IMG/VR virus record: IMGVR_UViG_3300020426_000391
DNA length: 64,000 nucleotides
Reading direction: 5' to 3' (one strand)
Source: a virus
Taxonomy: Duplodnaviria > Heunggongvirae > Uroviricota > Caudoviricetes
In this document: positions 20,143-40,379 of the stretch, in pieces
How positions within the stretch are numbered: the stretch's first letter is position 1
Layout: every line of letters starts with the position of its first letter
Notes under the pieces: generated by a model
What the model saw: the letters and a program-made list of their open reading frames with translations, nothing else
Database searches by the model: none
What the model was told of the DNA's origin: nothing
Program-made: the position numbers and the translations under genes

Positions 20143-22587
20143 TCAGAAGCGCAGGTTCCAGCTGCTGACCGCGCGCACGTCACGGCCTTCGACGTCGCTC
20201 GCCGCACCGAAGCGGAAGGCGGAGCGTTCGCCGGTCTTCTCGTAGCCGAAGGTCAGCTGCGGAGCCATCCGGCCGCGCATGTCGACGGTGCGATCCTCGA
20301 AGGTGAGGCCGCGGATGCCGAGATCGTAGCCGTTGCCGACGGTAAAGGTCGCATTGCCCGAGAGCGCGACCAGCCGCTGAGCGACCCCGAAGCTCACGAG
20401 ACCGCCGAGGGCCTCGCGGCTGGCGGTGAGACCGAACCGTCCGCTGGTGATCGTGTCCGCATCGGTGAGCAGCATGTCGTCGGCCAGCTTCAGGCGCGTC
20501 GCGCCCAGGCTCGCATAGCCGTCGAACTGCCAGCGACCGAGGTCGAAGCCGCTCGCGGCCTCGACGAACACCGTGCTCGAGCCGTCACCGAAGCGCATCG
20601 CGCCGGCGCCGACCGGAGTGCCGAAAACCGTGCCGGTCTCGTCGACCAGTCCGAGCTTCAGCGAGGAGGGACCCTGCTGCCACTGGACCGTCAGGCCGTT
20701 GGTGGCGGTGTTCTCCTGGCGTCCGACGTATGCCGAGACCGCGAGGCGTCCCTCGCCCAGCTTGTGGCTCACGCCCATGCTGGTCTGCGCGAGCGGCGAG
20801 TAGGCGAACATCGCGTCCGAGGTTGGCGCGAGGCCCATGACATCGTCCATGACGTTGTCACCGGTGTTGTAACCGGCGGTCACGGTCGTGTCCTCGTTCA
20901 TGCGGAACGCGAAGGCGGCGTTCGACAGGTGGTTCCGGAGCACCGGATCACCGTTCGAGTCGCGGAACTGCGTCTCGAAGGCCGTGTAGCCGATCGAGGC
21001 CGAGGCCTTGGGACTGATGAAGCCGGTGGACCCGGCGTTCGTCTGCGCCTGGACCCGGCGCTGCAGCCAGTTGGCGTTCGCCTGGCCCGGACGGATCACG
21101 AGACCCGAGATGTCGCCATCGTAGTCGCGACCGTAGGCATCGAGGACGGTGACGTCGCTGTAGACCGATTCGATCGAGGACGGACCGTATCCGCCACCGA
21201 AGGCACCGCCCACGACCATCACCGAGTTGTCGATCGAACTCGAGGTCTTGCCGTTCGACAGCATCGGATCGACGGGCGACAGAGCGGCCTTGGCATCGAT
21301 CAGGCCGTGTCCGTAGATCTCGTCGACGCCCGCCTCGCCGATGTCGCGAGCGGTGTTGATGATCACGTTGCCGGCGTCCACGCCGGAGAGCTGCGGCCAC
21401 TTGGACAGGATCATCGCAGCGAGCGCAGTGACCTGCGGTGCGGCCGAACTGGTGCCGCCGAAGCCGACGATTTCGCCGTTCACGTCATGCGTGACGTTGC
21501 TTCCGACCGCAGCGACGCAGCGATCCATCGCCAGGCCGCAGTGGTTGGAGTAGCTCGCGATCTTGTATTCGGTCTGCGACGGCGCGAGAGCCACGACGAA
21601 CAGCAGCGCCTCGGCGTTTGCGTCGGTCATGTCCAGGTAGTTGCCGGGATTGTCCTGCACGTTGTTGCCCGCGCTATTGATCACGAGGCCACCGAATGCG
21701 GCATAGTCAGCCAGCACGTTCTGCATGATGGCCGAGGTCGTGGTCGGATCGCTGCGGCTCAGCGACATGTTCAGCAGCTTGATGTCGTTCGCGATGGCGT
21801 ATTCGATCGCCTCGTTGCTGCGGAAGCCGTACATGCGATTGCCATTCACCATCGCGTCGACCCGCAGCGAGACGAGCGTGACGTCCGGAGCGAGGCCCTG
21901 GACGCCCTGGCCGTCGTTGCGTGCACCGATGATCGCAGCCACCGGAGTGCCGTGGATCGAGGTCCCGTCCCCGCTGTTGGCTCCGCCTTCGCGGGGCTGC
22001 AGCTTGCCGTCGACGACGACGCCGCCGAAGTCGCGACTGAGCTCGCGATCGACCTGGCCTTCGAGCTCCGGAATGGCGTTGATGCCGTCGTCGAGGATGC
22101 CGACGAGGACGCCTTCACCGGTCCAGCCGTTGTCGAGCGCGTAGAGAGCGTTGATGTATTCGGCCGCGGTGTAGTTGCGACGATATTCGGTGTCGTCCTG
22201 GACCGAGCGCTGCGGCTGCTGGTCGCGGGGAGTGATCACGTAGCCCGCGGGCGGGGGCACCGGTGCGCAGTTCGGCTCGCACGACGGAGGCGTCGGAGTG
22301 GGAGTGGGAGTGGGTGCCGGAGTCGGAGTGGGCGTCGGCGTCGGCGTGGGTGCCGGCGTGGGTGCCGGCGTGGGTGCCGGCGTGGGCGTGGGTGCCGGCG
22401 TGGGCGTGGGTGCCGGCGTGGGCGAAGGTGCCGGAGTCGGAGCGGGTGCCGGAGCGGGCGACGGGGTGCCCACCGGAGGAGGGGGCGGAGCGGGAGTCGA
22501 CTGGACACCGCCGCCGCCGCCGCAGGCTGCGAGACTGGCGAGTGCGACCGTGCTGGCGGTCACGCGCAGGATCTGTGAAATCTTCAT
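20143..22587 (-). CDS. S8 subtilase autotransporter lipoprotein (814 aa)
   Basis: Lipobox LAACGG; long Pro/Thr/Ala linker. S8 triad motifs ILDDGI, HGTPVA, GTSSAAP. C-terminal beta-barrel-like region ending in an aromatic residue (WNLRF). Confidence 0.8.
22290..22475. repeat. tandem GC-rich short repeats (ggcgtgggtgcc units) encoding the PT/PA linker of the autotransporter
   Basis: Visible head-to-tail repetition of 6-12 nt units. Confidence 0.7.
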
Positions 22588-23420: not shown

Positions 23421-24032
23421 TCAGGCGTCTTTCGAAGATTCTATGAGATCCAGGATGATCCTGTAGATTATGATGTTGTGAGGATCGCTAGCCATGCTCG
23501 TCATAACGTCTTGCACGTCTTCCGGGGTGAACCGGTATTCCTCCGGGACGTAGCTCAGTCGCGGTATTCTCGTTTCCCGGACACGCGGCCCCGTCGTCAT
23601 GGATACGCGCTTGTTCGCGACACGCATGGCGACTTTCGCCGTTCCGCTATGCCCGGGTGAGATCTCGATCGTGGCTCTCGTGGCGATTCCATCTCCCGTC
23701 ATCGTCCGCAGTGCCGTTGAGGGGATGATGCGTGGCTCACGCATGTTCGCTGTCGCGACTCCGATCAGCAGGTCTCCGGCCAGCCCCCTGGCCAACAGTG
23801 CTGCCGATTGCTTTTCCGTGGCGCTGTAGAACCAGATCAGCATGAGGGCGATGGTTGCGAGCACTGTCTGCATGGTATCGAAGAGCGTTGCGGGGATTAA
23901 GGCGGAGGAGAGTATCTGCATCGCGAGGCATATCGTCAGGACGACGCTGACCGCCTGCTGGATCGTCGCGCTCCTGTTCCTGCGCCGGAGCGATGTCCAG
24001 CGCAGGTCGATCATCTCGCTGACGGGGTTCAT
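23421..24032 (-). CDS. hypothetical membrane protein (2 predicted TM helices)
   Basis: Hydrophobic stretches VSVVLTICLAMQILSSALIPATLF and LATIALMLIWFY. Confidence 0.45.
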   Translation of the reverse strand: MNPVSEMIDLRWTSLRRRNRSATIQQAVSVVLTICLAMQILSSALIPATLFDTMQTVLATIALMLIWFYSATEKQSAALLARGLAGDLLIGVATANMREPRIIPSTALRTMTGDGIATRATIEISPGHSGTAKVAMRVANKRVSMTTGPRVRETRIPRLSYVPEEYRFTPEDVQDVMTSMASDPHNIIIYRIILDLIESSKDA

Positions 24033-24646
24033 GTCTCTTCGCTGGTCACAGCCAGCGATCTCACGAGCCGGGCCTGGGTGGTCAGTCCCAGTTTGATGTT
24101 CTGGTAGGCGGCGTATTGTGCAGGGAAGTTGCGGCGCGCGACCTTCATCATCGGGATGATGCGCTCATCTGTGAAGTCCACGTAGGACAGCATCTTCTTC
24201 TGGTTGAACACACCGCCCATGGTGTGCTGGTTCATCAGCCTGTCGACGGGTTTGCCGATCGAGGCTATCGGGCATGCGGCCATCGCCTGATAGAGCATGT
24301 CCTCGTCGCGCTTGTCGCCGTTCTCGTCGATCTTGGTCATGCGCCATGTCGCGTCCGCGATCTGTTCGCCGAACCGTCCCGCGACCTCATGGCGCGATAC
24401 GGGGGTGTCCTCGATCGTATCGTGCAGGAAGGCCACCGCGATCGTGGCCTCCGGGAAGATGAGTCCGGGCAGGGTCGAGATGTGGATTGCGATCTCCGTC
24501 TGGTGCGCGAATTCGGGAGTGACATTGTCCTTTCGCGTGCCCTGGTGATGCTGCCGTGCGAATTCCATGGCTTCCAGTGCGACATTGTATCCACGCCCCT
24601 GCAGCCAGCCGCGCAGGAATACCGTCTGTTTCTGAAACTCGTTCAT
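24029..24646 (-). CDS. HD-domain (p)ppGpp hydrolase-like protein (small alarmone hydrolase, SpoT/Mesh1-type)
   Basis: H...HD motif AFLHDTIEDT with an upstream His (EFAHQTEIAIH). Size about 205 aa. Start MNEFQKQ. Confidence 0.65.
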   Translation of the reverse strand: MNEFQKQTVFLRGWLQGRGYNVALEAMEFARQHHQGTRKDNVTPEFAHQTEIAIHISTLPGLIFPEATIAVAFLHDTIEDTPVSRHEVAGRFGEQIADATWRMTKIDENGDKRDEDMLYQAMAACPIASIGKPVDRLMNQHTMGGVFNQKKMLSYVDFTDERIIPMMKVARRNFPAQYAAYQNIKLGLTTQARLVRSLAVTSEET

Positions 24647-24740
24647 GGCAGGTTTTCCCTTCTCTGATATATCTCTTGCACCCCCTGACACCGAGAGGGT
24701 GACGGGTCGTCCGATTCCCCCTGGGCGGCCCGTCTTCGCG

Positions 24741-25205
24741 TCAGCCTGGCTGTCCGATGCCTACCCTGTAGTAGGGTATGCCTTCCCATTCCTCGGACAG
24801 CGGCTCCTGGAGCTTGCGCGCCATTGCGACCGCCTCGGAGCGATCGCTAGAATGGCAGGTGACGCGCTTCAGGTTCGCGAACCGCGCCGGTTCTTCGAGC
24901 ATGAGGTGGAGGACGCGTTCGACCGCATCATGCCCGGTCGTCGTTCCCGATCCGAGATACCAGTCGAGGGAGAGGCGCTCGAGGCGGCCCGGCTCGAGGG
25001 TCCGCAGCAGTTCCATGAGCGCGGTGACGCTCTTGACCAGCGTCCATCCCTCGGGAGGTGCGCGTTCGTCGTCGAGATAGATCTTCACGCCGCCTTCGGT
25101 CGGAGGGGTTTCGCGCCGGAGGGCTTCCTGTTCAGCTTTGCGGGCGAGGAACTTCGCCGACGGCTTGCGCGGTTTCTTGGGAGGCTTGATCTTGAAGCCG
25201 CTCAT
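24741..25205 (-). CDS. hypothetical protein with a basic N-terminal tail
   Basis: Track ORF; KIYLDDERAPPEGW block is of unknown family. Confidence 0.4.
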   Translation of the reverse strand: MSGFKIKPPKKPRKPSAKFLARKAEQEALRRETPPTEGGVKIYLDDERAPPEGWTLVKSVTALMELLRTLEPGRLERLSLDWYLGSGTTTGHDAVERVLHLMLEEPARFANLKRVTCHSSDRSEAVAMARKLQEPLSEEWEGIPYYRVGIGQPG

Positions 25206-25494: not shown

Positions 25495-26919
25495 TCATGC
25501 TGCCTTCTTTTTCTCTTCCGTGACATTCGGAAGACCCGCCCTGTAGGCGGAGATGTGGGCCTTCACGGACCGGAGGATCGAGGCGTGGTGCGGCCGGTCG
25601 ATGCTCTGTCCGATCACTTCTGAGGCGATTGTCGCGCTGACCGCGTTCATGTCGGTCTTCTCGATGCCGAGGAAGCGCTTCAGCTGCTCTTCCGTCGGCC
25701 AGAGGAAGACACCATCCTCCGGTTCGATGACGATCGAATCCTTGGCCATGCGCGCCTGTGACTTGACCGGGGTGGGAATGGAGGTGGACTTGGGCGTGAT
25801 GCGCCGCAGCCGGCCGCATTCCTTGCCGTCGTTGAGCGACTTCGAGTGCGAGACGTCGCGGCACTGGTCGAGATCGTTCTTTACCACCGCCCAGGCATCC
25901 TTCTCGCGGTCCGTGAAGGGCTCTTCGAAGGCGAAGGGCGCATCGAGCTGCGTGAAGACCACGTAGGCCCGGCGCCGTGACGTCCATCCTCCGTAGAGCC
26001 GGGCGTCGCCCACGTGCTCATGGCACGTGTAGCCCCAGCGGCGCAGACGCAAGGAGGCGACCTTGTATGCGGCCGAATCGAGCATGCCGGCGACGTTCTC
26101 GAAGAGCACGACGGGCACGGCCAGGCGCTCGATCACGTTGAGGAGGTCGATGATCATGTCCTCGCTCGATGTCGCCTCCTCGTTGTGGCGCTCCTTCAGC
26201 TTGCCGGCCTTTAGCGGGGAATGGTCGTCGCATTGGGGCGAGGCGTGGAAGAGCATCACCGGGTTGCGTTCCATGGCCCGCTCGATCTCGTCGAGGACCG
26301 CGCTGGTGACGTCCTCGTTGAAGAGGGCATGCAGTGGGCCCGAGTTGGCGAGCGCGCACAGGGCGCCCGTCTCGGTGAGATCGGCCTTGTCGCGCGATTC
26401 CTGCGGTCGCCATTCGAGGACCGCGGAGACCGAGAACCCTTCTTCGCGCAGCGACATGAGATCGACGCCTGAGGTCAGTGCGGCGAAGGTCGACGCCGGA
26501 TCCGCTGTCTGGGCGTTGGCGATCGCTCGTTCGCTCATGGTCCGTAGCGGCGTGACGACCACGCGGCCGCGCTCGAAGCGCACATGGACCCGCGTGCAGT
26601 CGGAAGGGAAGCTCTCGTCGAGCAGCTTCTGCGAGGAGACCTCGAGCTGGGTCTCGAGCGGATTGTTCTTCCGACGCGGATAGCTGCGGGCATAGACCTT
26701 CTTGGTCGGTGCCTGCTCGAACAGGTCGTAGACGCGTTCGATCACCATGCCCTTCCCCTTGCCGAGACTGGTCTCGACGACATCGTCGCCCTTGTTGAAG
26801 TCGAACAGAGTCAGCAGGTTCGAGGAGATGGTGAGGATGCGGCGGCTGCCCTTGTGGCGGAAGGCGAGCTGTTTGGTCGCGATCTCGGGCACGTTCACCT
26901 TGACGAGTGTATCGGTCAC
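25495..26919 (-). CDS. DNA (cytosine-5)-methyltransferase
   Basis: PC motif FHASPQCDD (motif IV) and ENV motif VVLFENVAGM (motif VI). Extra 150-aa N-terminal domain. Confidence 0.75.
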   Translation of the reverse strand: MTDTLVKVNVPEIATKQLAFRHKGSRRILTISSNLLTLFDFNKGDDVVETSLGKGKGMVIERVYDLFEQAPTKKVYARSYPRRKNNPLETQLEVSSQKLLDESFPSDCTRVHVRFERGRVVVTPLRTMSERAIANAQTADPASTFAALTSGVDLMSLREEGFSVSAVLEWRPQESRDKADLTETGALCALANSGPLHALFNEDVTSAVLDEIERAMERNPVMLFHASPQCDDHSPLKAGKLKERHNEEATSSEDMIIDLLNVIERLAVPVVLFENVAGMLDSAAYKVASLRLRRWGYTCHEHVGDARLYGGWTSRRRAYVVFTQLDAPFAFEEPFTDREKDAWAVVKNDLDQCRDVSHSKSLNDGKECGRLRRITPKSTSIPTPVKSQARMAKDSIVIEPEDGVFLWPTEEQLKRFLGIEKTDMNAVSATIASEVIGQSIDRPHHASILRSVKAHISAYRAGLPNVTEEKKKAA

Positions 26920-28663: not shown

Positions 28664-29527
28664 TCACTTGATGTTGACGAGTCCGTTCGCATCGCCGTCC
28701 ATGACGACGGTGTTCGCACCGGTCTCGGCGAACTTCATCAGCGCCTCGTTGTATTGCTGGCGCAGCAGCGAGGGCGTGATGGAGGCGGAGACGGCGCGGT
28801 TGGCTTCGGCTTCGCCCTGGGCACGGGTGACGGCGATCTCGGCTTGCTTCTCGGCGATCTCGAGTTCGACCTCGGTACGCTCCAGGTCCTTCTGCGCCTT
28901 GACCGCGAGCTGGATCGATTCCTCGATCGACTTGTCGGTCGTGACCGCGCGCAGGGCGACCTGCGTGACGGTGAAGGCGCCAGGGCTCAGCGAATCGAGA
29001 CTGCGCTGAAGGCGGATCTTGATCGCGTTCGTCAGTTCGTCGCGCTTCTGGTGGATGGTCAGGCTGTCGATCGTGGAGACGGTGTCGTAGATCGCTTCAC
29101 GTGCCTGACGCATCACGACGCCGTAGCCTGCGAGATAGACGCCTTCCTGCTCGTCATAGCGCGTCTGGCCGAGGAACTCGACATGGAGGTCCGCGACCCG
29201 ACCCGGATTGACCTGGTAGAACACGGAGACGTCGAGGTCCTGCAGCGAGAGGTTGTCGCCGGCCTTGGGCTTGAGGTCGATGAAGTCGATCACGGTCTCG
29301 CGCACGTTGTACTCGTCGACCGAGGTGACGAACGGCAGCTTGGGCACGAAGCCGGCCGTCGATTCCTCGAGGCTCGTCTGGCCCATCGTCTTCTTGACGC
29401 CGACGTTGCCGGTCGAGACGATGCTGAAGCAGCCCATCAGGGCGATCAGGATGACGATCGGGACGACCACCCATTTCACGATGCCGCCGACGCGGATTCG
29501 GGGAGTCTGGTCCATTCGTAATTGCAT
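28664..29527 (-). CDS. SPFH/band-7 (stomatin/prohibitin/HflC-like) membrane protein
   Basis: N-terminal TM anchor, SPFH core, and a C-terminal coiled-coil rich in E/A/Q. Confidence 0.65.
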   Translation of the reverse strand: MQLRMDQTPRIRVGGIVKWVVVPIVILIALMGCFSIVSTGNVGVKKTMGQTSLEESTAGFVPKLPFVTSVDEYNVRETVIDFIDLKPKAGDNLSLQDLDVSVFYQVNPGRVADLHVEFLGQTRYDEQEGVYLAGYGVVMRQAREAIYDTVSTIDSLTIHQKRDELTNAIKIRLQRSLDSLSPGAFTVTQVALRAVTTDKSIEESIQLAVKAQKDLERTEVELEIAEKQAEIAVTRAQGEAEANRAVSASITPSLLRQQYNEALMKFAETGANTVVMDGDANGLVNIK

Positions 29528-29567: not shown

Positions 29568-30686
29568 TCAGTCGTCCTGCCCGAATTTCCTGAGGAAGAC
29601 GTCGCAGTGCGTCTTCAGTATCGGTCGCATGAAATTGCCGAGCTTGGTCTGGCGCATGTCCTGTTCGCCGACAGCCCGGATGACGATTCCCTCGCGGATG
29701 TGCTTGGCATCGAGAGTGGTGTCCCCCTCGCGCAGTTCCTCGACCTTTGCCGCGTCGTACATGCCGCGCCACAGCACGGGTGCGGGCTGGATCCCGGCCT
29801 GCATGAGATAGCTGTCGATCTCGGTCTCGTTGAGCCAGCGCTGGCCCACGCGGATGTCGAATCCGCGCACGGATGGCTTGCTCTGGCCGTAGTGAAGCTT
29901 CTTGATGCCCGGCCCGATGGCTTCGGCGAAGAGCTGGACGGTCTGGTCGGCCGCGCGCATATTGTGGACCATCATGCCGAAGCGGCGGATGAGATCGGCG
30001 TTGCGCGCGGCGCGGATGACGGGCACCTTCTCTGAGGCCTCGCACTCGCGGAAGATGAGACCTTGTCGGGCGAGTCCCTTGGTGGCGATCGCGATCTGTC
30101 CGTCACCGTGAGCCCCTTCGACCGGTTCGTCACCGAGCCAGGTCATTTGGAGGCACTCGCCTTCGAGCTTCTCGGTGATGACGACCTCCGAGCCTTCCAG
30201 GAATTCGGGATAGGTCTTGAGTCGGCCGATCTGGTAGTCCACCTTGGCGCGAGCGACGGGCATGGCGATCTTCAGGAGTTCGGGGTCGATCTCCGGAATC
30301 CATTCGGTGATGCCGAAGTGGTCCGAGACGTCGGTGGTATCGGGCAGGTGCGCGAGTTCATCGGGCAGCTTCCACAGCAGCCCTGTCGAGAGCTGGCCGC
30401 GCAGGGTGACCGGCTTGATGACGTCGCCGCCGGGGCCGGAGAGGAGGCCCATCTCGGTTTCCTTCTGGGGATGCAGGCCCCAGAAGCCGTGCTCCTTGAG
30501 GAGATTCTCGGGCAGGCGGCAGCCCTCTGCCACGTAGACGACCCGTTCGCCGACGGCGAACCGCGGGCTGCCGTCGGGCAGGTTGTTGCTCACGGCGTCG
30601 TATCCGAGGACCTTGTAGGCTGTGAGCCGATCGGCCTTGGGGATGTGATGCGTGCCGGTGATGGGAAGAATGCGTGCGGTCGTCAT
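29568..30686 (-). CDS. ATP-dependent RNA ligase-like nucleotidyltransferase (Rnl family)
   Basis: Motif I EKLEG (KxxG), motif III LFAEAIGPG, motif IV REGIVIR (EGhVh), motif V TKLGNFMRPILK. Confidence 0.55.
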   Translation of the reverse strand: MTTARILPITGTHHIPKADRLTAYKVLGYDAVSNNLPDGSPRFAVGERVVYVAEGCRLPENLLKEHGFWGLHPQKETEMGLLSGPGGDVIKPVTLRGQLSTGLLWKLPDELAHLPDTTDVSDHFGITEWIPEIDPELLKIAMPVARAKVDYQIGRLKTYPEFLEGSEVVITEKLEGECLQMTWLGDEPVEGAHGDGQIAIATKGLARQGLIFRECEASEKVPVIRAARNADLIRRFGMMVHNMRAADQTVQLFAEAIGPGIKKLHYGQSKPSVRGFDIRVGQRWLNETEIDSYLMQAGIQPAPVLWRGMYDAAKVEELREGDTTLDAKHIREGIVIRAVGEQDMRQTKLGNFMRPILKTHCDVFLRKFGQDD

Positions 30687-30725
30687 GTTCTGTCTTTTTT
30701 CCGTTCGCTGTGATTGTCGTGGATC

Positions 30726-31265
30726 TCACTTCCACTGGGTGCGCCGCCATCCCTTCCAGCCGCGCGTGTCGGTGCGGCGCGAAAGGTCCCAGTCGGGATT
30801 GCTGCGCTTGCGCTTGAGAGCGATCCGCCGTCCGCAGACGAGGATCTCGCTCAGCTGGCTATCGTGGTCGTCTTGGTGGCGAATTTCCTTCAGACGGCAT
30901 TTTCGCGTCTTCCAGGGTCCGCCCTTGTAGGACCCGGTGCCCGGGATGGGCAGCCCGTGCTCGCGCGCGTGGCGCAGTTCCTTGCAGTAGCGGCTCTCTC
31001 GCCGGCATTCCGGCTCGCGGGGCCAGTCCGCATTGGTGACGATCCGCCCGTGGTCATCACGGGCGATGTAGCGGTTGGTGATGGTGTGGATCTCACCGTC
31101 GATGTCGACGATGCGCTCGACATGCTGACGGTGGAGAGGGAGGTGCAGTCGTCCGGCGAAGGTCCGGCGACGGATGGTGGGAGCGAAACGTCGCGCTTCG
31201 ATCTCGTCGTAGCTGAAGACGGTGCCGTCGATGTCGATGATGTGGATGGGATAGGCGATGTGCAT
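30726..31265 (-). CDS. hypothetical protein with a Cys/His cluster (possible Zn-finger nuclease)
   Basis: CRRESRYCKELRHAREHG. Confidence 0.35.
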   Translation of the reverse strand: MHIAYPIHIIDIDGTVFSYDEIEARRFAPTIRRRTFAGRLHLPLHRQHVERIVDIDGEIHTITNRYIARDDHGRIVTNADWPREPECRRESRYCKELRHAREHGLPIPGTGSYKGGPWKTRKCRLKEIRHQDDHDSQLSEILVCGRRIALKRKRSNPDWDLSRRTDTRGWKGWRRTQWK

Positions 31266-31404
31266 GGATCATGCTCCTTGTTGGTTCATAATCTCATGAT
31301 GATTTTCCTTTCTTCCGATGGTTGCCTGTTCTCGTTTCTCAGAGGAACCAGTTCTTCCTGATGCTCACGGACCAGCCTGTAGCACGGTCGTAGAGTACTG
31401 CGTC

Positions 31405-31725
31405 CTATCCCGTCTTGCCCCAGACGTATCTCTCGCCCTGATAGGGCAGTCCGTAGCGCCATGGACGCTGCAGCAGGATGATGCCCGGATTATAGACGGG
31501 CGGACTCGGCTTCTCCCTGACCCGACTATCCCGCGGATCTATGACGACCCGGCCGTCACCGTCGTAATTCCTGACGGGCACTCCGTCCTTGACGATCTCC
31601 TCGACCGGCCTCCCCTCGTAGCGAACGGTGGGCACCTGACCGTAGGGCTGCGCCTTGACGGAAGGGGCGATGCACATGGCGCAGGAGAGAATGATTCCGA
31701 TGTGTGTCTTCATGGACGCGATCAT
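31405..31725 (-). CDS. small secreted protein
   Basis: Signal peptide MIASMKTHIGIILSCAMCIAPSVKA. Confidence 0.45.
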   Translation of the reverse strand: MIASMKTHIGIILSCAMCIAPSVKAQPYGQVPTVRYEGRPVEEIVKDGVPVRNYDGDGRVVIDPRDSRVREKPSPPVYNPGIILLQRPWRYGLPYQGERYVWGKTG

Positions 31726-31740
31726 GCCCGCTTTCTCATT

Positions 31741-32091
31741 TCATGGACGTGAATCCTCGTCCGGCTGGTCGTCTTCGTTCCGTCTTTCGCGATCCTCATT
31801 GCATTTGCGATGGGCGGCGACGAGGTTCGGAGGGCCGTCGAGCCCTCCGTCCTCGAAGCGGATCACGTGCTCGAACGTGGCGAGCCAGGCAGCGGGTCGC
31901 CTGTCCTCCTCGCCATCGGGGACTTCGCCGAACGATCTCGAGCACCAGTGGCACAGACCATCCTGCTCCTCGATGAGCCGCTCCTTGAGTTCGGGCGGAT
32001 GTCTCAGGCGTATCCGACGCCCCCATGCATCGTATTCGGGTTCGTCCGGTCTCCGCCACTTGCGCTTGGGAGGCGGTCGTGTCGGCTTCAT
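31741..32091 (-). CDS. HNH endonuclease
   Basis: CHWCSR ... FEHVIRFEDGG ... NLVAAHRKCN. Confidence 0.75.
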   Translation of the reverse strand: MKPTRPPPKRKWRRPDEPEYDAWGRRIRLRHPPELKERLIEEQDGLCHWCSRSFGEVPDGEEDRRPAAWLATFEHVIRFEDGGLDGPPNLVAAHRKCNEDRERRNEDDQPDEDSRP

Positions 32092-33014
32092 GCCGCGATG
32101 GGCAGGCCGAAGTCCGATGCCAGATCGGGACGCATGCGCTCGACCTTGGGGAAGACCATGTTGCCGTTCTCGTCGAGGCCGTAATGGCTGACCTCGACCA
32201 CGTAGTGATCCATCATGGTCATGACGGCGTGGCGATCGAAACGCTTGTCGAACGATCCGACGCGACCTGCCTTCACCAGTTTGCCGTTCTCGTCGTAGCG
32301 TTTCACGTCGAGGCTGCCGGCGCCGAGCGAGGGATCGCCCTTGTTGGGGTTCCAGCCGGTGACGATGAGGTCCTCGGTCTGGCGGATCTTGACCTTCCAG
32401 GCCCGGCCGCGCTTGGTGTTGCCGTTGAGGTTGAGCGCGTGCGGCGCGGTACGATCCCAGAAGACCAGGCCTTCCATCTTGCGCCGCTCGATCTCGGCGA
32501 GCATGCCGTCGTAGTCGCGGATGTGCTCGAGATCGTATTCGACCCCCATCGTGGAGATCGGCATGGAATTGTAGACCTGCATGAAGTCCTTCACACGCTG
32601 GAAGCGATCCTCGTAGGGGTTGCAGGCATCACTGCCGTCGAGACGCAGCATGTCGAAGGGCGACACGAAGATCTCTTCGGGGTCATCGTTCAGCGCCCTC
32701 TGGAAGCTGTAGGTGCCCTCCTCGAGCGTATGGGCCTCGACGTCGAACATCCACCCTTGGGGCGCGCTCTTGAAGGCCCATACGACATGTCGCAGCTTGT
32801 CGGTCCAGTCGAGCGTGCCGTTGCGCGAGTAGATGCGGGTGTTCTCGCCGGCGGTGATGACATGAGCGCGGTTGCCGTCGCGCTTGCGCGTCCCGATCAG
32901 CTGGCCGCGCTGCCACATGCGGTTGAATTCTTCCGGTTCGATCGTCTGCACCGGCTTCTGAAGGGCCCAGCCCTGGGGGAAGAGGGTCATTTTTCCACTC
33001 CTGTGTGATTTCAT
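32088..33014 (-). CDS. ATP-dependent DNA ligase, compact phage/viral type (about 300 aa)
   Basis: Motif I TRKRDGNRAH (KxDGxR), motif III FDVEAH, motif IV EGLVFW, motif V AWKVK. Confidence 0.8.
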   Translation of the reverse strand: MKSHRSGKMTLFPQGWALQKPVQTIEPEEFNRMWQRGQLIGTRKRDGNRAHVITAGENTRIYSRNGTLDWTDKLRHVVWAFKSAPQGWMFDVEAHTLEEGTYSFQRALNDDPEEIFVSPFDMLRLDGSDACNPYEDRFQRVKDFMQVYNSMPISTMGVEYDLEHIRDYDGMLAEIERRKMEGLVFWDRTAPHALNLNGNTKRGRAWKVKIRQTEDLIVTGWNPNKGDPSLGAGSLDVKRYDENGKLVKAGRVGSFDKRFDRHAVMTMMDHYVVEVSHYGLDENGNMVFPKVERMRPDLASDFGLPIAA

Positions 33015-33044: not shown

Positions 33045-33548
33045 TCAGGCCACGCTCTCCACGCCCGCTGCCGTCAGGACGTGCCGCGGCGCTCCTCTGT
33101 TGAGGGCTATCGACACCTTCCCGTCCTTCTCCTCGGCCCTGCTCGTCCACGCTCCGATGAGGTAGGGGTGATCGATGATATCGCTGGCCTTCATGACGAC
33201 GTCCCTGTCCGTGAGCTTCAGACGCAGGGCCTCCGGGACCATCTCCTTGCGTATCAGTATCCCTCCGCGTCCGAAGCTGTAGCCCTCGCCATCGTAGTTG
33301 GCGGCCAGGATCACGGTCCGGGAGGCGATCTTGCGGTAGTGGACCTCGACCGACCGCTTGGGCGACGGCCATTGGCACTTGAAGACCGTCGAGTCGTATT
33401 TCTCGACACGTCCGCACAGCTCATGCATCCTGCGGGCGGTCGTGCCGGTGTTCGTCTCGATCCATTTCAGCAGTTCGGCCATCCCTGCGTCGAGCAGGGG
33501 ATCGCGCATGCTCGCCCGCTGCATTCCCATAGCGACCGTCTGCCTCAT
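33045..33548 (-). CDS. hypothetical protein, paralog C1
   Basis: Shares DPLLD.GM..LL.W.E, IIDHPYL.GA and RHVLT..G.E with 33545..34018. Confidence 0.5.
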   Translation of the reverse strand: MRQTVAMGMQRASMRDPLLDAGMAELLKWIETNTGTTARRMHELCGRVEKYDSTVFKCQWPSPKRSVEVHYRKIASRTVILAANYDGEGYSFGRGGILIRKEMVPEALRLKLTDRDVVMKASDIIDHPYLIGAWTSRAEEKDGKVSIALNRGAPRHVLTAAGVESVA

Positions 33549-34018
33549 GTCATCGCCTCGATGCCCGTGGAAGTGAGGACGTGTCTCGCGGGTTCGCGGT
33601 AGATGGACAGGAGCAGGTTGGTGTTCATCTCTCCGTCGCCCGCCTTTGCCCCCGTGAGATAGGGGTGATCTATGATGGTGCTTGCATCAACGATGCCGTC
33701 TGGATCACATAGGACCGTGAGACTGGTCTGGGTGAGGGCCTTCCTCCCGATCACGAGCAGATCGTTCGTCAACGTCCAACTCTTGCCGTAGATGGTGGCG
33801 ATGAGGATCATCCTGCCCGAAGGATCTTCTGGATCGTCGCGGTGACTGATCTCGATCCAGTCGTCAGCCGACCTTTTCCTCTCATAGACCTTGGCGTTAT
33901 CCCCGGTGGTATCGAGGCATTTCTGATGGATGTCTCTCAGGATGCGCGGTCTGGTCTGTTCCAGCCATCGTAGTAGCGCGACCATGCCGTCATCGAGAAG
34001 CGGGTCGCTCCTCTTCAT
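33545..34018 (-). CDS. hypothetical protein, paralog C2
   Basis: See C1. Confidence 0.5.
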   Translation of the reverse strand: MKRSDPLLDDGMVALLRWLEQTRPRILRDIHQKCLDTTGDNAKVYERKRSADDWIEISHRDDPEDPSGRMILIATIYGKSWTLTNDLLVIGRKALTQTSLTVLCDPDGIVDASTIIDHPYLTGAKAGDGEMNTNLLLSIYREPARHVLTSTGIEAMT

Positions 34019-34896: not shown

Positions 34897-36354
34897 TCAC
34901 AGAAGGCCGAGCTGCTGAGGCCCTTCCTGCTTGCTGGTTGTCTGGGTGGTCTGCTGGACGGCTTCCACCGGTCCTGCTCCTTCGCCCCATCTACCGAGTT
35001 CCACGCCGATTGCCACTCCCAGCGCCCGGAAAGGTGCTGCGACGATCGACTGCCCGAGCATCTCGTGTGCTGTCGTGATGCCGAGACCCTCGATCATCTC
35101 CTCCGGGGTGCCTTTTATGCGGGCGTGCTCCACCGGGGTGAACTGGCGCAGGAGCTTCGGATCGGTGGGGTGACGCAGCTTGGGTTCTGTCGAGCGGATC
35201 TTGGCGTAGCCGCGACCGATTGTGCCGACCTTCGTGTCCTGCGGGCCCAGGATCTGCATCCGGAAGCCCTTGCCTGCTATGCGGTCCCGCGTTTCCTTGT
35301 CCTTCAGGTAGCGCATCTCGGACCACAGACCCGAATCGGGCGGGACGTCCTCGAGGATGTCACCGACGGTGATCTCTCCCTGACCGCCCTTCTCGATGGC
35401 CGAGAGGATGTCGGCCTTCATGCCCCGGCTGGTGGCGAGCAGGGCCATCCGGTGGCGATGTTCCAGGCAGTCGAAGTCTTCGCCCTTGAGGATGACGTGG
35501 ACGACGTCGTACTGCCATTCGCGCAGCTGGTTGCATAGGATCGAGAAGCTCGCGGAATCCGCATACTGGGGCACGTTCTCCACCAGGACTACGGATGGAT
35601 TGGTCGCGGCGACGATGGCGAGGAATCCGACGACGAGATGTCCCGCGACCGGATCGTGCTCGGGCATCGCCAGCTTCTTCTTGGATCGTCCCGCGATCGA
35701 GTGTGCGGTGCAGGGGATGCCTGCCTCGAGGATGTCCACCTCCTCGATTCGTCCGATGGCGTCGCGGTCGAAGGCGAATTCCTGCAGCGGCATGTTGATG
35801 GCGACGGTATCGTCATGCCAGGCAGGATTGCGCGCCGCGCACAGGTCCTGGTATTCCTGGTCGATCTCGACCGAGAAGGCGAGTTCGCTGGTCCTGCCCG
35901 CATGGGCGAGACCCTCGTGGATCGCGTGACTCAGGACACCAAGACCGGTCGAGACCGATCCGGCGCGCAGGGGCAGATGCGCATCGAGACGTGATTTCGT
36001 TCGTTGCTCGCGGCGCTGGCGCCGCGCCTCGACGGCGGAAGGCTCGATCGTCAGCGTTCCCTTGGTGAAGTCGATTCGCAGCGTCTCGATGCCCTCGAAA
36101 CTGCGCAGGATGCCGGCATTGGCGATGTCGATGATGGGATCCTCGTTGCCGCGACGCTTGCGCCGACTGACGGTGCGGTCCCCCTGCGCGTCTAGCGCTA
36201 GGACGATCCTCTGCGCATCGGCGTCGATCGTCATCCGGTAGCGGGACTGCGGAAGGAATCCGGCTGCCTCGAGCTTCCGCCCCTCGATCCAGATGCGTGG
36301 ATTGCCGCGCTTGTCACTGGCGAGCCTGGTGGTGGAGATCGCGTTGGCGTTCAT
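34897..36354 (-). CDS. DNA (cytosine-5)-methyltransferase, second copy of the family
   Basis: PC motif GIPCTAHS and ENV motif VVLVENVPQY. Start MNANAISTTRL at residue 70 of track ORF 34897..36561. Confidence 0.7.
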   Translation of the reverse strand: MNANAISTTRLASDKRGNPRIWIEGRKLEAAGFLPQSRYRMTIDADAQRIVLALDAQGDRTVSRRKRRGNEDPIIDIANAGILRSFEGIETLRIDFTKGTLTIEPSAVEARRQRREQRTKSRLDAHLPLRAGSVSTGLGVLSHAIHEGLAHAGRTSELAFSVEIDQEYQDLCAARNPAWHDDTVAINMPLQEFAFDRDAIGRIEEVDILEAGIPCTAHSIAGRSKKKLAMPEHDPVAGHLVVGFLAIVAATNPSVVLVENVPQYADSASFSILCNQLREWQYDVVHVILKGEDFDCLEHRHRMALLATSRGMKADILSAIEKGGQGEITVGDILEDVPPDSGLWSEMRYLKDKETRDRIAGKGFRMQILGPQDTKVGTIGRGYAKIRSTEPKLRHPTDPKLLRQFTPVEHARIKGTPEEMIEGLGITTAHEMLGQSIVAAPFRALGVAIGVELGRWGEGAGPVEAVQQTTQTTSKQEGPQQLGLL

Positions 36355-36542
36355 CAGAATTCTCCTGGATAGATGGGTGTGTCGCGATTGGGACGTGGCG
36401 TGTCCTCGTAGATCGGGACGACGCGTGGATAGCCGCGGTTCTGCATGGCCTTGCCTCGTCGCACGAGAAAACGGCCCGCTCTCTCGAGAAGGCGTCCGAA
36501 TCGATCGATCATGTCGTGGTTCCTGGTTCTGTGTGCTGTCAT
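36354..36542 (-). CDS. possible small protein (62 aa) translationally coupled to the methyltransferase
   Basis: Track ORF ending in an ATGA overlap with the MTase start. Confidence 0.3.
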   Translation of the reverse strand: MTAHRTRNHDMIDRFGRLLERAGRFLVRRGKAMQNRGYPRVVPIYEDTPRPNRDTPIYPGEF

Positions 36543-36574
36543 GTTCGCCGGCGGTCGTCATGCGACCGCCGGGC

Positions 36575-37054
36575 TCATTGTGTGATGGGGTGCGGGACGG
36601 GCTCGTCGAGCTGCAGGCGCATCCTCCAGTTCGCGCTCCCGCGTCGCCGCAGCGAGACGACGACCCTTTCGGCGAGATGGGGAAGGGCCACGATCTGGTC
36701 GACCGTGCGTCCGGTCACACTGGCCTGTATGCATTCGGGCAGGTCGCGCAGCACGATCTCGGTCTCCCTGATCCTCCAGTCGTCGCTCGTGATCTCCGCA
36801 GAGAACCGGTGGAGATGGAAGTCGTAGGAGATCTGGGTCCGCGTCCCCTTGCCGAAATGATCGGGAAGCCCGTTGAAGAACATGACCTCCTGCGGAGCGT
36901 TGAGTATGCCGTACCTGTTCGGGCGCTTGTTGCCGATCCGGTCGTGCAGCTTCATGGCGAGATCGTGCCATGCGCGTTCGATGCCGATCTCGATCAGCGC
37001 GGCATGGGCATTGGGGAGGGCCGTGATCGGCGTGCCCGGCTTGCGTTTCGGCAT
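36575..37054 (-). CDS. hypothetical protein
   Basis: Track ORF. Confidence 0.45.
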   Translation of the reverse strand: MPKRKPGTPITALPNAHAALIEIGIERAWHDLAMKLHDRIGNKRPNRYGILNAPQEVMFFNGLPDHFGKGTRTQISYDFHLHRFSAEITSDDWRIRETEIVLRDLPECIQASVTGRTVDQIVALPHLAERVVVSLRRRGSANWRMRLQLDEPVPHPITQ

Positions 37055-37070
37055 CGCGTTTTCCTCTCGC

Positions 37071-37643
37071 TCAGGGATTCTCTTCGTCTAGGAGCTTCAC
37101 GTAGGCGATACCGGCATTGCGCCATTCGCCCATGGACCGGGGGATATCCGCAATGGCTCCGTCCCTGTGGCTGCCCGACAGGATCAGGATGGCCCCGTCT
37201 CCGCTCAGATCGATGTCCTCGATGCACCGGCCTTTCAGGTAGTGCAGATCCATGATCTCGGTCGCCGGGAAGGATCCCTCCGTCAGTCTTTCCCGGTATG
37301 CGTGGAGAATGCTCGATGGTGTCCCGATCACGCTGATCGTGTCGTCGTCGATCCTCCACTTGAGCGGTGCGGAGGCCGAGGTAAGGCGTGCATGGAGCCA
37401 GGTCGTCTCCTGTCCCGGGTCCTTTTCGATCCGCCATTCGATCTTGCGCGTCGAGCCGCTGATGGAGCCTACCGCGTTCCTGATGCGGTTATCGATGCCG
37501 GCATGACGCAGATTGTCCATGGCGTTGCTGCAGGTCATCATCGCCTGCCTGGGGGCGCTGGCGGCCTCGATCATGAGGAGATGGTGTGCGGCTCTCGTCA
37601 GTAGCACAGGTCCGCCTCCTCGTGGGTCAGCAGGAGGTTCCAT
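37071..37643 (-). CDS. hypothetical protein (true start probably at an internal Met near 37540-37575)
   Basis: Track ORF; the upstream gene ends at 37598. Confidence 0.4.
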   Translation of the reverse strand: MEPPADPRGGGPVLLTRAAHHLLMIEAASAPRQAMMTCSNAMDNLRHAGIDNRIRNAVGSISGSTRKIEWRIEKDPGQETTWLHARLTSASAPLKWRIDDDTISVIGTPSSILHAYRERLTEGSFPATEIMDLHYLKGRCIEDIDLSGDGAILILSGSHRDGAIADIPRSMGEWRNAGIAYVKLLDEENP

Positions 37644-38080
37644 TCGTGATCGAGCAGGTACAGGGTCGAGCCCGCTCCCGCGTCCACGACCCTGGTGATC
37701 CGGACCCCGTCGAGGAGCTCCATGTCGACGACCTCGCGTGCATCGAAGCCGGCGGATGCCCTAGCCTGGTGCTGCGTGCGTTTCGTCTCCGGCACGCCGT
37801 GTATGGTCATCGAATGGGCATCGATGGCGAGGATGGTCGTGAGGTAGGTCACCGCCAACGTGACCTTGTCCATGTCCGCCTCGAGGAAGAACTGCAGCGT
37901 GGCATCGCCGCAGGGCATGGAATGGATCATGGCGGTGATGGTATCCTCGCTGGAACCATCCAGTTCCTCGTCGATCCTGGCGAGCAGCGTGGCGTCGAGC
38001 TTTCCATCATGCCTGCGGCCGATGTCGAGCATGCGCTTCGTCCCCCGCGTCATTCCGATCTTCATGGATTTTCCCTTCAT
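37598..38080 (-). CDS. hypothetical protein
   Basis: Track ORF. Confidence 0.4.
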   Translation of the reverse strand: MKGKSMKIGMTRGTKRMLDIGRRHDGKLDATLLARIDEELDGSSEDTITAMIHSMPCGDATLQFFLEADMDKVTLAVTYLTTILAIDAHSMTIHGVPETKRTQHQARASAGFDAREVVDMELLDGVRITRVVDAGAGSTLYLLDHEWNLLLTHEEADLCY

Positions 38081-38116
38081 CCGTGTTCCTGCTGTCTCCC
38101 GATCCGTGTCGGGCTC

Positions 38117-38620
38117 TCATTTCGTCCATCCCTCGACGACTGGCAGATCCGTGGCCGGCCTGTCCGCACACGGCGCCAGGTCGAGGATCATCCGATTACT
38201 CATTCCGGTGCGTACTGCGATGACGCTGCGGTTCTCGAGGACGCCGAAGGGGCCGTCCTCTATGACCTTCCGGACATCGAACGGGACCTTCCCCGACAGG
38301 GAGGTGATGATGGTGCTGGGCACTCCGGGGATCGTCACGAGATGGCTCTGGATGGTGATGTTCCCGGAAGGGTCGGTGATCAGCCAGCGCGCATCGAGAG
38401 TGGCGACGCCATCCTCGACCGTGACGGCGTATTCGAGGTCGTATCGACCGGACTTCTCGCGCCTGATCATCCTCGGACCCTTGCGCTGCCCGCTCGCCAT
38501 CTCCCGGGCGACGTGATGGGCGTCGAGCGTGATGCTCTTGCGGGCTCCGTGGTCCTGAGACGTGCTGTGTTCGAGGGCGAGGCGCGCCCAATGGGTTACG
38601 AGGACCTTCACCGGCATCAT
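38117..38620 (-). CDS. hypothetical protein
   Basis: Internal start MMPVKVLVTHW. Confidence 0.4.
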   Translation of the reverse strand: MMPVKVLVTHWARLALEHSTSQDHGARKSITLDAHHVAREMASGQRKGPRMIRREKSGRYDLEYAVTVEDGVATLDARWLITDPSGNITIQSHLVTIPGVPSTIITSLSGKVPFDVRKVIEDGPFGVLENRSVIAVRTGMSNRMILDLAPCADRPATDLPVVEGWTK

Positions 38621-39153
38621 CGGATGGTCTCGGCGGTCTCGGACCACGTGGGCCATTCACGCACCTGTGCGTGCGTCACATAGGCGATCTGCAGCCAGAT
38701 CTTGTCGCGGTCGGCATCGATGTGGCCTTCCGTGATGCTGCGCGCGTCATCCGTCATGAACGAGACGACGTCCTTGACGAGCAAGTCGCCTTCCTTGGCC
38801 TTGGATAGTGTCGAATTCATCTTGGCGTGAGGCATGCCGACGATGGAGATGAGAGCTTCACCGATGTAGGTGGCACCGCCATCGAGCGTGATCTGGCCGC
38901 AGAGGGCCGGCACGCCGTCCTGGAACCTCGCTTCCAGTCGGTATTCGATGCCCGCCTGCTCGTGGACGTAGTTCTTGGCGCCCATTTCCTCGCAGCGATT
39001 GGCGATGGCGTCCTTGATCGCCGAGAAGGCATGCCGCCTGTCCGTAGCGGAGAGGCCCTTCAGGACGGAAAGGACCTTCCGTGCGACTGGCCCGACATGT
39101 GTCGGCGCTCCGGCGTGAGTCGAGGTCCTCTTCACATCCAGTCCCCTGTCCAT
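38617..39153 (-). CDS. hypothetical protein
   Basis: Track ORF. Confidence 0.4.
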   Translation of the reverse strand: MDRGLDVKRTSTHAGAPTHVGPVARKVLSVLKGLSATDRRHAFSAIKDAIANRCEEMGAKNYVHEQAGIEYRLEARFQDGVPALCGQITLDGGATYIGEALISIVGMPHAKMNSTLSKAKEGDLLVKDVVSFMTDDARSITEGHIDADRDKIWLQIAYVTHAQVREWPTWSETAETIR

Positions 39154-39653
39154 GTCCTGAGGCCATCGTGGGTCAGCGCCCCGGCCCTGTTATCGCTTCT
39201 GAGGTCGGACACCAGGAGAGCGAACCAGGGCGGTCCCTCGTCGTATTCGTCGTGATCCTCGTCCGTCTCCACTCCGGTGTAGCGCATGCTCTCCCAAGGA
39301 GCCGTCATGACGGCTCCCACCTGTCCGAGAGTGCTTCCGACCTTGCTCGCGAAATCCATCTTGAACGACTCGGGGATGTCCTTCAGCCAAAGACGGCCGC
39401 TCGACATCTGCCATGCGGAAGTATCCAGATTGAAGAGGAGATCGGCATCGCCGTTCTTCAGGATCATGTTGCAGGAGAGACGGATGTCCCCGATGGCCAC
39501 TTCCGACAGATGGATGATCTTCTGGATGCCTCCCTGATCGCTCGTGAATGCATTGTGGGCTGACCTATGGATCTCCCTCTCGAGACCGGGGAAGCGATCG
39601 CGCGCCATATGGAGCCCGATCGCGCCGAGCAGGGATACGGGGAATGCGTTCAT
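39132..39653 (-). CDS. hypothetical protein
   Basis: Track ORF. Confidence 0.4.
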   Translation of the reverse strand: MNAFPVSLLGAIGLHMARDRFPGLEREIHRSAHNAFTSDQGGIQKIIHLSEVAIGDIRLSCNMILKNGDADLLFNLDTSAWQMSSGRLWLKDIPESFKMDFASKVGSTLGQVGAVMTAPWESMRYTGVETDEDHDEYDEGPPWFALLVSDLRSDNRAGALTHDGLRTWTGDWM

Positions 39654-40151: not shown

Positions 40152-40241
40152 GGGTAGTCAAAGCCATACTGGATTTGCGCAACCGGACTGTAAATCCGGT
40201 CCTCGAAAGAGGGGGAGGTTCGATTCCTCGGCTGCCCACCA
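40152..40241 (+). tRNA. tRNA-Tyr-like, anticodon GUA, type II with an aberrant D-arm (possible pseudo-tRNA)
   Basis: Acceptor GGGUAGU/GCUGCCC with two G-U pairs, A73, CCA. Anticodon arm CCGGA CUGUAAA UCCGG, variable hairpin CCUCGAAAGAGG, T-loop UUCGAUU. Confidence 0.4.
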
Positions 40242-40277
40242 AGTTTAGGAGAATGAGTATCGGATGCATGCAATGAC

Positions 40278-40360: not shown

Positions 40361-40379
40361 TCATTGCCGATAACGGATC

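Follow-up and report, generated by a model that had tools for sequence, protein, structure and literature searches.

In a 64,000-nt stretch of viral DNA (IMG/VR record IMGVR_UViG_3300020426_000391, Caudoviricetes; hereafter the window), predicted genes for an RNA ligase and an ATP-dependent DNA ligase lie about 1.4 kb apart, and a gene for a putative HNH nuclease overlaps the latter. Do these genes, all within the locus at 29568–33014, form one nucleic-acid repair unit? A first-pass annotation had read them in this way, i.e., as a coordinated cluster for T4-like healing and sealing against anticodon nucleases, with the HNH nuclease as a coupled partner of the DNA ligase. From profile searches, structure models and comparison with related elements we arrived at another explanation, namely two independent ligases and a selfish HNH gene that stand side by side in the gene array of a giant element, with no repair operon. 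We consider this explanation probable, with some room for doubt.

All credible protein genes of the window (GC content 60–65%) lie on the minus strand, the only one whose frames combine high GC at the third codon position with low GC at the second. In the five open reading frames (ORFs) of the locus, third-position GC was 0.72–0.86 compared with about 0.4–0.5 at codon position 2. The four genes listed previously exist, but a fifth one had been omitted at 31405–31725. In order of coordinates, the locus thus holds genes for the RNA ligase (29568–30686, 372 aa), a conserved 179-aa protein (30726–31265), a 106-aa protein (31405–31725), the HNH nuclease (31741–32091, 116 aa) and the DNA ligase (32088–32990, 300 aa), all on the minus strand. 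They are spaced by 39, 139 and 15 nt, and the last two overlap by 4 nt. Shared direction, close spacing and the HNH/ligase overlap would speak for a joint repair cluster. However, the whole 64-kb window is equally co-directional and tight spacing is typical throughout, so the arrangement is not specific to the locus. Between 28.5 and 35 kb, a scan for promoter-like sites found none (the result was at or below chance), and terminator-like sites occurred there at chance level only and on the wrong strand.

What kind of RNA ligase is encoded at 29568–30686? The protein matched PF09414 over residues 167–348 (E = 1.5e-16, 61.5 bits, cutoff 27), phrog_968 (E = 7.5e-24) and TIGR02306 RNA_lig_DRB0094, the DraRnl family (E = 1.5e-32), whereas an N-terminal match to PF21189 (PHA02142 OB, residues 6–105) was weak and below cutoff (E = 8.6e-4). 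An N-terminal OB domain (about residues 1–130) precedes the C-terminal nucleotidyltransferase (NTase) domain. Among 32 homologs, down to 24% identity, E172, K173 and G176 of motif I, E255 of motif III, R331-E332-G333 of motif IV and K358 of motif V were invariant. Motif I reads TEK173LEG and motif IV R331-E-G-I-V, which bears out the KxxG and EGhVh elements first annotated; of the proposed KxK, only xK is present in motif V. NgrRnl was the sole solved structure that matched by sequence, and its alignment spans motif I, pairing K173 with the lysine of the NgrRnl KLDG motif (K170). In a BLASTP alignment with DraRnl from the D. radiodurans plasmid pMP1 (29% identity), K173 pairs with K165, the experimentally defined nucleophile of that enzyme (PMC5397189). 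K173 is the predicted adenylylated lysine.

The structure model points to the same family. An AlphaFold (AF2) model built on the 32 homologs had a mean pLDDT of 92.6, and in a Foldseek search its best 13 PDB matches were all NgrRnl, covering both domains (E 4e-22 to 6e-20, TM 0.67–0.76). The next group, T4 Rnl2 and REL1, aligned with the NTase domain only (E 5e-9 or weaker). The top 50 PDB matches also include NTase domains of Rnl3 and Trl1 at E 5e-9 or weaker, and no Rnl1-family structure was among them. By predicted fold and motifs, the 372-aa protein is hence an RNA ligase of the Rnl5 type, and the original assignment as Rnl-like stands, with a conserved motif I lysine and membership in ligase families. 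It shares with DraRnl (DR_B0094) and NgrRnl (PDB 5cot) the OB-then-adenylyltransferase order and motifs I, III, IV and V, but is only 19–29% identical to characterized Rnl5 enzymes and stays under the TIGR02306 equivalog cutoff. RefSeq names it automatically as 'RNA ligase family protein'. Homologs of 33–37% identity are annotated as RNA ligases in phiCbK-like Caulobacter and Brevundimonas jumbo phages; the Rnl5 family is known from bacterial viruses (PMC5397189). A closer clade of 41–95% identity occurs on metagenomic contigs of up to 0.3–1.3 Mb and on a 408-kb replicon of Erythrobacter aureus. This distinct clade, with 249 hits, comprises about 45 clusters, which occur on contigs of 0.3–0.6 Mb from metagenomes and on one Erythrobacter replicon.

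The frame of the second ligase is open up to 33014, giving the 308 aa noted at first. We propose that translation probably starts at M9 (position 32990), yielding 300 aa, because an AGGAG lies 9 nt upstream, every gene model in the databases agrees with this start (the 100% identical one has 300 aa) and the N-termini of homologs coincide there. Motif positions are given in the numbering of the 308-aa ORF, in which K44 corresponds to K36 counted from M9. The protein matched PF01068 (E = 9.1e-8, 32.5 bits, cutoff 26.2) and phrog_114 (E = 1e-17). When compared with 26 homologs of 46–79% identity, it shows all six covalent-nucleotidyltransferase motifs, i.e., I (K44-R-D-G-N-R), III (D91-V-E93), IIIa (F120-D121), IV (E181-G182, in EGLVFW), V (W206-K207-V-K209) and VI (F-P-K-V-x-R-x-R295-P-D297-L). 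Invariant in these homologs are K44, G47, R49, D91, E93, F120, D121, E181, G182, W206, K207, K209, R295 and D297. The KxDGxR motif and motifs III–V reported from the first inspection were therefore recovered, together with IIIa and VI. Three features are specific to the clade: the terminal lysine of motif IV is replaced by tryptophan (EGLVFW), motif VI ends with leucine (RPDL), and an invariant H-x-x-N-x-N-G-N-T-K-R-G insert lies between motifs IV and V.

In the AF2 model of this protein (pLDDT 88.8), the NTase domain precedes the OB domain, with a beta-rich domain at 212–294. All top 50 PDB matches found by Foldseek were ATP-dependent DNA ligases, with both domains covered, and they include LigD ligase domains (1vs0, 6nhx), Lig E (6gdr, 4d05, 8u6x), T7 ligase (1a0i) and the ligases of ASFV, T4 and a Rhizobium phage. 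Identity to these enzymes in the structure alignments was 14–23%. Judged by motifs and modeled fold, the 300-aa protein is a complete minimal two-domain (NTase and OB) ATP-dependent DNA ligase, with K36 as the predicted adenylylated lysine. At about 300 aa and with no extra DNA-binding domain, it resembles Chlorella virus ligase, Lig E and the ligase domain of LigD. Its best NCBIfam match was indeed the LigD ligase domain (E = 1.3e-17), but the curated cutoffs of the LigD models TIGR02779 (64 versus 227.75 bits) and TIGR02776 (61.5 versus 373.2 bits) were not reached. In contrast to LigD it stands alone: the protein has no LigD POL or PE domain, and Pfam found no Ku, primase/polymerase or PolX among its neighbors. 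A periplasmic signal of the Lig E kind is absent as well.

In sequence, this ligase is a notably divergent member of a known enzyme class. Its family is tiny: a search of 5.8 billion proteins yielded 41 clusters. It was not found in IMG/VR, occurs in a single GTDB genome or species (Croceicoccus gelatinilyticus) and gave no tblastn match in 50,697 phage records (INPHARED). The protein is already annotated automatically as 'ATP-dependent DNA ligase' in UniRef and JGI/IMG and as 'hypothetical protein' in RefSeq.

Is the HNH gene a partner of the DNA ligase? The 116-aa ORF matched 14 HNH PHROG families (best E = 8e-7) and carries the signature C47-H-W-C50...H75...N89...H94-xx-C97, which fits its initial naming as an HNH endonuclease, while its PF01844 score remained just under the cutoff (20.6 versus 21.4 bits). 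By sequence, both ligases and the HNH protein appear catalytically complete. Its ATG overlaps the TGA stop codon of the DNA ligase as a 4-nt ATGA. The overlap noted before is thus real, but not the fusion, as the two genes are separate ORFs. Inspection of the upstream context revealed no Shine-Dalgarno sequence of the HNH gene's own.

Comparison with relatives suggests how the overlap arose. Four contigs, each from another sample (L002–L005), carry the HNH gene in identical form, but it is absent from L010, a collinear relative with 90% identity in the DNA ligase and 78% in the RNA ligase. Nucleotide identity between the window and L010 is 87% up to window position 32092, which directly precedes the stop codon of the ligase, and breaks off there; in place of the HNH ORF, L010 has a 44-nt spacer. 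A short motif, AATGAGA-AGC, upstream of the start of the next gene is kept in both. The gene is also missing in three more distant relatives (L006, L007 and L008), and its only phage homolog (43% identity) was found in one of five closely related Brevundimonas jumbo phages. Because of its absence from L010, the breakpoint at the ligase stop codon and its patchy distribution in phages, the HNH gene is probably a free-standing, lineage-specific selfish insertion of the homing type. It resembles free-standing phage HNH homing genes in that it is a small ORF in a spacer beside a conserved gene of DNA metabolism, with presence/absence polymorphism and patchy occurrence. If it was inserted at this site, the HNH/ligase overlap is incidental and no evolved coupling, and the translational coupling proposed earlier falls. 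We rejected a role as functional partner of the DNA ligase on account of the polymorphism.

HNH proteins assist terminases in some phages, and one might hence view nuclease and ligase as a cut-and-reseal module that aids a terminase in packaging, or as a defence module that attacks competitors while the element's own DNA is protected. HNH domains fused to Rnl2 ligases have been speculated to attack competing DNA (PMC7824862). We give such a module almost no credence here: no terminase or structural gene was detectable nearby, PADLOC defence models matched none of ten proteins of the region, which made us drop the defence reading, and the HNH gene is dispensable in the close relative L010.

How old is the neighborhood of the two ligases? 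Window and L010 share about 30 genes in order and are collinear over 21 kb apart from local differences. The order DNA ligase, 106-aa protein, 179-aa protein, RNA ligase is common to the window lineage and L010 only. Even there, L010 has an extra 529-aa gene before the RNA ligase and lacks the Band_7 gene after it. In L006, L007 and L008, whose DNA ligases are 76%, 54% and 52% identical to that of the window, no RNA ligase was found within 8 kb. Conversely, L009, L029 and L030, with RNA ligases of 60%, 50% and 50% identity, have no DNA ligase within 7–20 kb. We hence rejected a conserved operon of RNA ligase and DNA ligase, as L010 was the only one of the eight relatives examined in which the two are adjacent. 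The Band_7 gene of the window (28664–29527, minus strand) encodes an SPFH/Band_7 membrane protein (phrog_200, E = 2.9e-46) and lies directly downstream of the RNA ligase; its lack at that position in L010 marks another recent gene gain or loss.

The two small genes between the ligases contribute no repair function that we could recognize. The N-terminal part of the 179-aa protein (30726–31265) is beta-rich, and the protein ends in a basic WKxxRxTQWK tail. This tail, a GLPIPGTG-like motif and R69, D70 and G73 are invariant in its family, in contrast to its four cysteines (86, 93, 122 and 144), none of which is conserved in 10 close or 38 distant homologs. The protein had been called a Zn-cluster protein, a name that we dropped with the cysteines not conserved and the profile searches empty: the protein itself gave no match in Pfam, PHROG, NCBIfam, PADLOC or PDB, and profiles of 38 family members matched nothing in Pfam or PDB. 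A full search with a hidden Markov model (HMM) of the family gave 85 representative clusters of 105–220 aa, none of them annotated, and two long outliers of 518 and 1419 aa with multiple matching stretches. The 106-aa protein (31405–31725), also without a family match in Pfam, PHROG or NCBIfam, begins with MKTHIGIILSC..., which reads as a signal-peptide or lipobox-like N-terminus; its product is probably exported and has no link to nucleic-acid repair. Homologs of the 106-aa gene trail the DNA ligase in L010 (59% identity) and L006 (33%). The 179-aa gene is likewise syntenic with the DNA ligase in these two and is not beside ligases in the more distant L027. Both genes are conserved passengers between the ligases.

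As an exported protein would sit between the ligases, the cluster is functionally mixed. Judging from these comparisons, the juxtaposition of the ligases is evolutionarily shallow, the region is plastic, and the locus is not a dedicated repair operon. The presence of healing-type phosphatases and tRNA genes elsewhere in the window, and of HNH–RNA ligase fusions in some phages (PMC7824862), is compatible with the coordinated repair cluster read from the sequence initially. Nevertheless, we regard that cluster as very unlikely. It is largely refuted by the absence of the HNH gene from collinear L010 and its insertion exactly at the stop codon; moreover, the adjacency is lost in six other relatives, the exported and the 179-aa proteins interrupt it, and tRNA repair does not involve a DNA ligase.

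If not in a local operon, in which pathway might the RNA ligase act? Several candidate RNA-repair genes lie elsewhere in the window, all on the minus strand. The metallophosphatases and the HAD protein mentioned in the first-pass annotation are present. One metallophosphatase (60358–61533; PF00149) is a Pnkp-phosphatase homolog that matched TIGR04075 bacter_Pnkp at model positions 168–419 of 851 (E = 3.7e-79) and, with residues 139–388, PDB 4j6o, the phosphatase domain of Clostridium thermocellum Pnkp (E = 1.7e-59). An N-terminal extension of about 100–130 aa has no detectable similarity, and the protein shows no P-loop, kinase or ligase domain. Its gene probably starts at the ATG at 61458 or 61422, because the longest ORF reaches with its 5' end into the upstream helix-turn-helix (HTH) gene. 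We consider the protein a candidate 2',3'-phosphatase for RNA 3'-end healing, encoded 27 kb from the locus. The system differs from bacterial Pnkp/Hen1, as there is no tri-domain Pnkp, the ligase is not a Pnkp C-terminal domain, and no Hen1 methyltransferase was detected beside the phosphatase gene, where the downstream 314-aa protein had no Pfam or PHROG match. A second metallophosphatase lies at 58618–59493. The stand-alone HAD_SAK_2 protein, a 'Swiss Army Knife' RNA-repair HAD (62034–62495; PF18143, E = 3.3e-15, 57.1 bits, cutoff 27.5), has an N-terminal DxDGV motif and is a candidate RNA-end phosphatase. In the interval between the HAD_SAK_2 and Pnkp-like genes lie a small XRE-type HTH regulator (61472–61705) and an 83-aa acyl-carrier-like protein with a PP-binding DSL motif (61713–61964; PF00550, 21.6 bits), both also on the minus strand.

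Further candidates flank the RNA ligase at other distances. RlaP (6244–7326; PF10127, E = 2.2e-10, 41.1 bits, cutoff 23), 22 kb away, belongs to the RNA-ligase-associated Pol-beta nucleotidyltransferases, the family role of which has been described (PMC7824862). A cREC_REC protein (24741–25205; PF20274) is encoded 4.4 kb downstream of the RNA ligase and at the same position in L010 (60% identical there); cREC has been proposed as a receiver domain for cyclic-phosphate processing and linked to RNA ligases (PMC7824862). The window also encodes a NADAR protein (12927–13598), part of the RNA-repair/NAD-conflict toolkit, and another toolkit member, an HD_4 protein of the RelA/SpoT-type HD class (24029–24691). 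Iyer et al. (2021; PMC7824862) describe this toolkit as the way in which jumbo phages counter attacks of the host on tRNAs. The window resembles it in tRNA arrays, RNA ligase, RlaP, Swiss-Army-Knife HAD, cRec, NADAR and metallophosphoesterases (PMC7824862). It differs in that the usual ligases of the toolkit are Rnl1, Rnl2 and RtcB (PMC7824862), not Rnl5, and in that its usual polynucleotide kinase is not in the window.

Twelve tRNA genes were found in the window. Six form an array at 40152–40770 (Tyr, four Leu isoacceptors and Gln) on the plus strand, opposite to every protein gene; the other six, on the minus strand, lie at 4214, 22734, 43484, 44076, 44469 and 48495, and tRNA-Arg(CCT) occurs twice in the window. 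Grouped together on the minus strand are genes for a PTH2 peptidyl-tRNA hydrolase (45247–45645), a full seryl-tRNA synthetase (SerRS, 46101–47366) and a 174-aa fragment resembling histidyl-tRNA synthetase (HisRS, 47379–47903). In a 516,805-bp IMG/VR genome (L012), an ORF 56% identical to the HisRS-like fragment directly precedes the two tRNA-His genes that open a 13-tRNA array, and an Rnl5 gene lies 5 kb away. Rnl5 genes lie about 0.6–7 kb from tRNA or tmRNA genes in L012, L001, L009, L029 and L010. The Rnl5 gene of L012 is inside the 13-tRNA array, that of phage Bambus lies 3 kb from tRNAs and that of the E. aureus replicon 1.3 kb from tRNA-Gly. In L029, a 587-kb metagenomic contig, a permuted tmRNA predicted by ARAGORN (4961–5339) with the tag ANDNVALAVAA lies upstream of the Rnl5 gene at a distance of 1.7 kb.

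Anticodon-loop repair in T4 uses a ligase of the Rnl1 type. As with T4 Pnkp and Rnl1, the window combines an ATP-dependent RNA ligase with end-healing phosphoesterases and many tRNAs, and to this extent the healing-and-sealing scheme suggested at first has something to it. Unlike in T4, the ligase is Rnl5 and not Rnl1, no kinase domain occurs in the window, the parts are scattered over 56 kb, and DNA ligase and HNH nuclease have no role in such a pathway. We propose that the RNA ligase most likely serves RNA repair, in a dispersed form, and give this role about an even chance. It is favored because the phosphatase homolog, HAD_SAK_2, RlaP, cREC and 12 tRNAs share the window, because of the recurrent proximity of Rnl5 and tRNA genes, and because the gene set recalls the jumbo-phage toolkit (PMC7824862).

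The proposed mechanism would run as follows. The region would belong to a very large array of genes that all run in one direction on a giant marine mobile element, whose contigs reach 0.27–0.62 Mb, and two independent polynucleotide ligases would have become neighbors there by happenstance. The DNA ligase would adenylylate itself on K36, pass the AMP on to a 5'-phosphate and close DNA nicks when the element is replicated or repaired. The RNA ligase would be adenylylated on K173, presumably from ATP, and seal 3'-OH/5'-PO4 duplex nicks in which the 3'-OH strand is RNA. It would act as the sealing step of a dispersed toolkit with the Pnkp-phosphatase homolog, HAD_SAK_2, cREC, RlaP, the 12 tRNAs, SerRS and PTH2, which might shield the translation apparatus from ribonucleases of the host or of competitors. 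Only in this lineage would the HNH gene have landed in the spacer, just past the stop codon of the ligase.

A number of observations weigh against this scheme. Walker-A scans of six frames and of the called proteins revealed no 5'-OH polynucleotide kinase in the 64-kb window, in agreement with the earlier remark that no Pnk P-loop was seen, and a full heal-and-seal pathway can hence not be assembled from the visible genes. The sole Walker-A-like motif of the window, GESGGGKG with Gly for Ser/Thr, belongs to an FtsK/SpoIIIE-family ATPase (1959–3290, minus strand). The repair candidates lie 4–31 kb from the RNA ligase, and tRNA proximity could be due to chance because tRNA genes are frequent in these elements. 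Rnl5 enzymes such as DraRnl and NgrRnl close nicks in duplexes and perform poorly on single-stranded loops; breaks in anticodon loops are thus not an obvious substrate. With 112.8 bits against an equivalog cutoff of 151.15, the TIGR02306 score places the RNA ligase in a divergent clade. The substrate preference of the DNA ligase is an extrapolation as well, because its clade is far from any characterized subfamily. Moreover, the only genetic evidence for any Rnl5 enzyme concerns 'ribo-patch' repair of DNA (PMC5397189).

This last point leads to the main alternative for the RNA ligase, the sealing of ribonucleotide-containing nicks in DNA, to which we assign a low but real probability. DraRnl, a Mn2+-dependent enzyme, seals 3'-OH/5'-PO4 duplex nicks only if the 3'-OH strand is RNA, and its deletion makes cells sensitive to radiation and slows the reassembly of the genome (PMC5397189). 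As proposed for DraRnl, the two ligases of the window might form a DNA-centered pair in which the DNA ligase closes all-DNA nicks and the Rnl5 enzyme those with 3' ribonucleotides, i.e., ribo-patches or RNA-primed ends. The deletion phenotype and the need for RNA on the 3'-OH side only (PMC5397189) would fit such a pair, as would the fact that two lineages have the ligases as neighbors, separated by the same pair of small genes, that the nearest families of the DNA ligase are LigD ligase domains, and that two C5 DNA methyltransferases flank the region. However, the adjacency is gone in all more distant relatives examined, the LigD-type partner genes sought by Pfam are lacking nearby, and the accessory genes for RNA repair, like the repeated closeness to tRNA genes, speak against it; as a pair, the arrangement is possible but unlikely. 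The two C5 DNA cytosine methyltransferases (25495–26919 and 34897–36561, minus strand) bracket the ligase region and are conserved in L010 with 93% and 69% identity.

Less likely still, though of some interest, is that the window stems from an undescribed family of 0.3–0.6 Mb marine elements that the phage collections and IMG/VR lack. Here the Rnl5 enzyme might seal in an RNA-repair route that dispenses with a kinase, or the Rnl5 enzyme, the LigD-like ligase and the two small proteins might constitute a new module for ribo-nicks in the element's DNA.

Returning to our preferred explanation of two independent ligases and a selfish HNH gene, the locus would otherwise be ordinary, with two known enzyme classes. 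Genetic evidence on the role of Rnl5 ligases comes from Deinococcus only, and a clade on tRNA-rich giant elements, near RNA-end-healing enzymes and sometimes near a DNA ligase, is natural material for a test of RNA repair against ribo-patch repair. The DNA-ligase clade, small and very divergent with altered motifs IV and VI, could interest enzymologists.

Which element carries the locus? Ocean metagenomes (Tara, ENA, JGI, Logan) contain the region in identical form on contigs of 228–266 kb, and ligase copies of at least 90% identity lie on contigs of up to 618 kb. RefSeq places the proteins under a metagenome-assembled genome of "uncultured Salinicola sp.". A 9-kb megablast query gave no match among phages, INPHARED lacks the element, IMG/VR contains neither it nor either ligase clade at close range, and PHROG scans recognized no phage structural gene in the window; for ten large proteins without a family, they matched only a protease. 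A distant relative is the 408-kb replicon of Erythrobacter aureus YH-07 (NZ_CP031358.1; L009, L025), which was deposited as a plasmid, carries flagellar genes, ParB-N, thyA, DHFR, MazG and several DNA methyltransferases, and yielded nothing in a literature search. A one-directional gene array, tRNAs, synthetases and an RNA-repair toolkit are traits typical of huge phages. The element may be either a huge phage or a megaplasmid.

Some of its further cargo is unusual for a phage, i.e., a short GmrSD_N/DUF262-domain protein (19221–19766, minus strand) that recurs in L007, L009 and L010 with 35–68% identity, two subtilases (3378–4097 and 20143–22587), a cation-efflux transporter (4963–5916) and an HWE histidine kinase (52681–53712). 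For a 390-aa ORF at 62782–63954, there is no database record of the protein, and its start codon is probably wrong. Tandem arrays of paralogous proteins of 157–190 aa with no database family lie at 33045–34018 and 36575–39653 (minus strand); in the first of these, the products of 33045–33548 and 33545–34018 are 30% identical paralogs. In L010, the first site holds one copy and the second array is longer.

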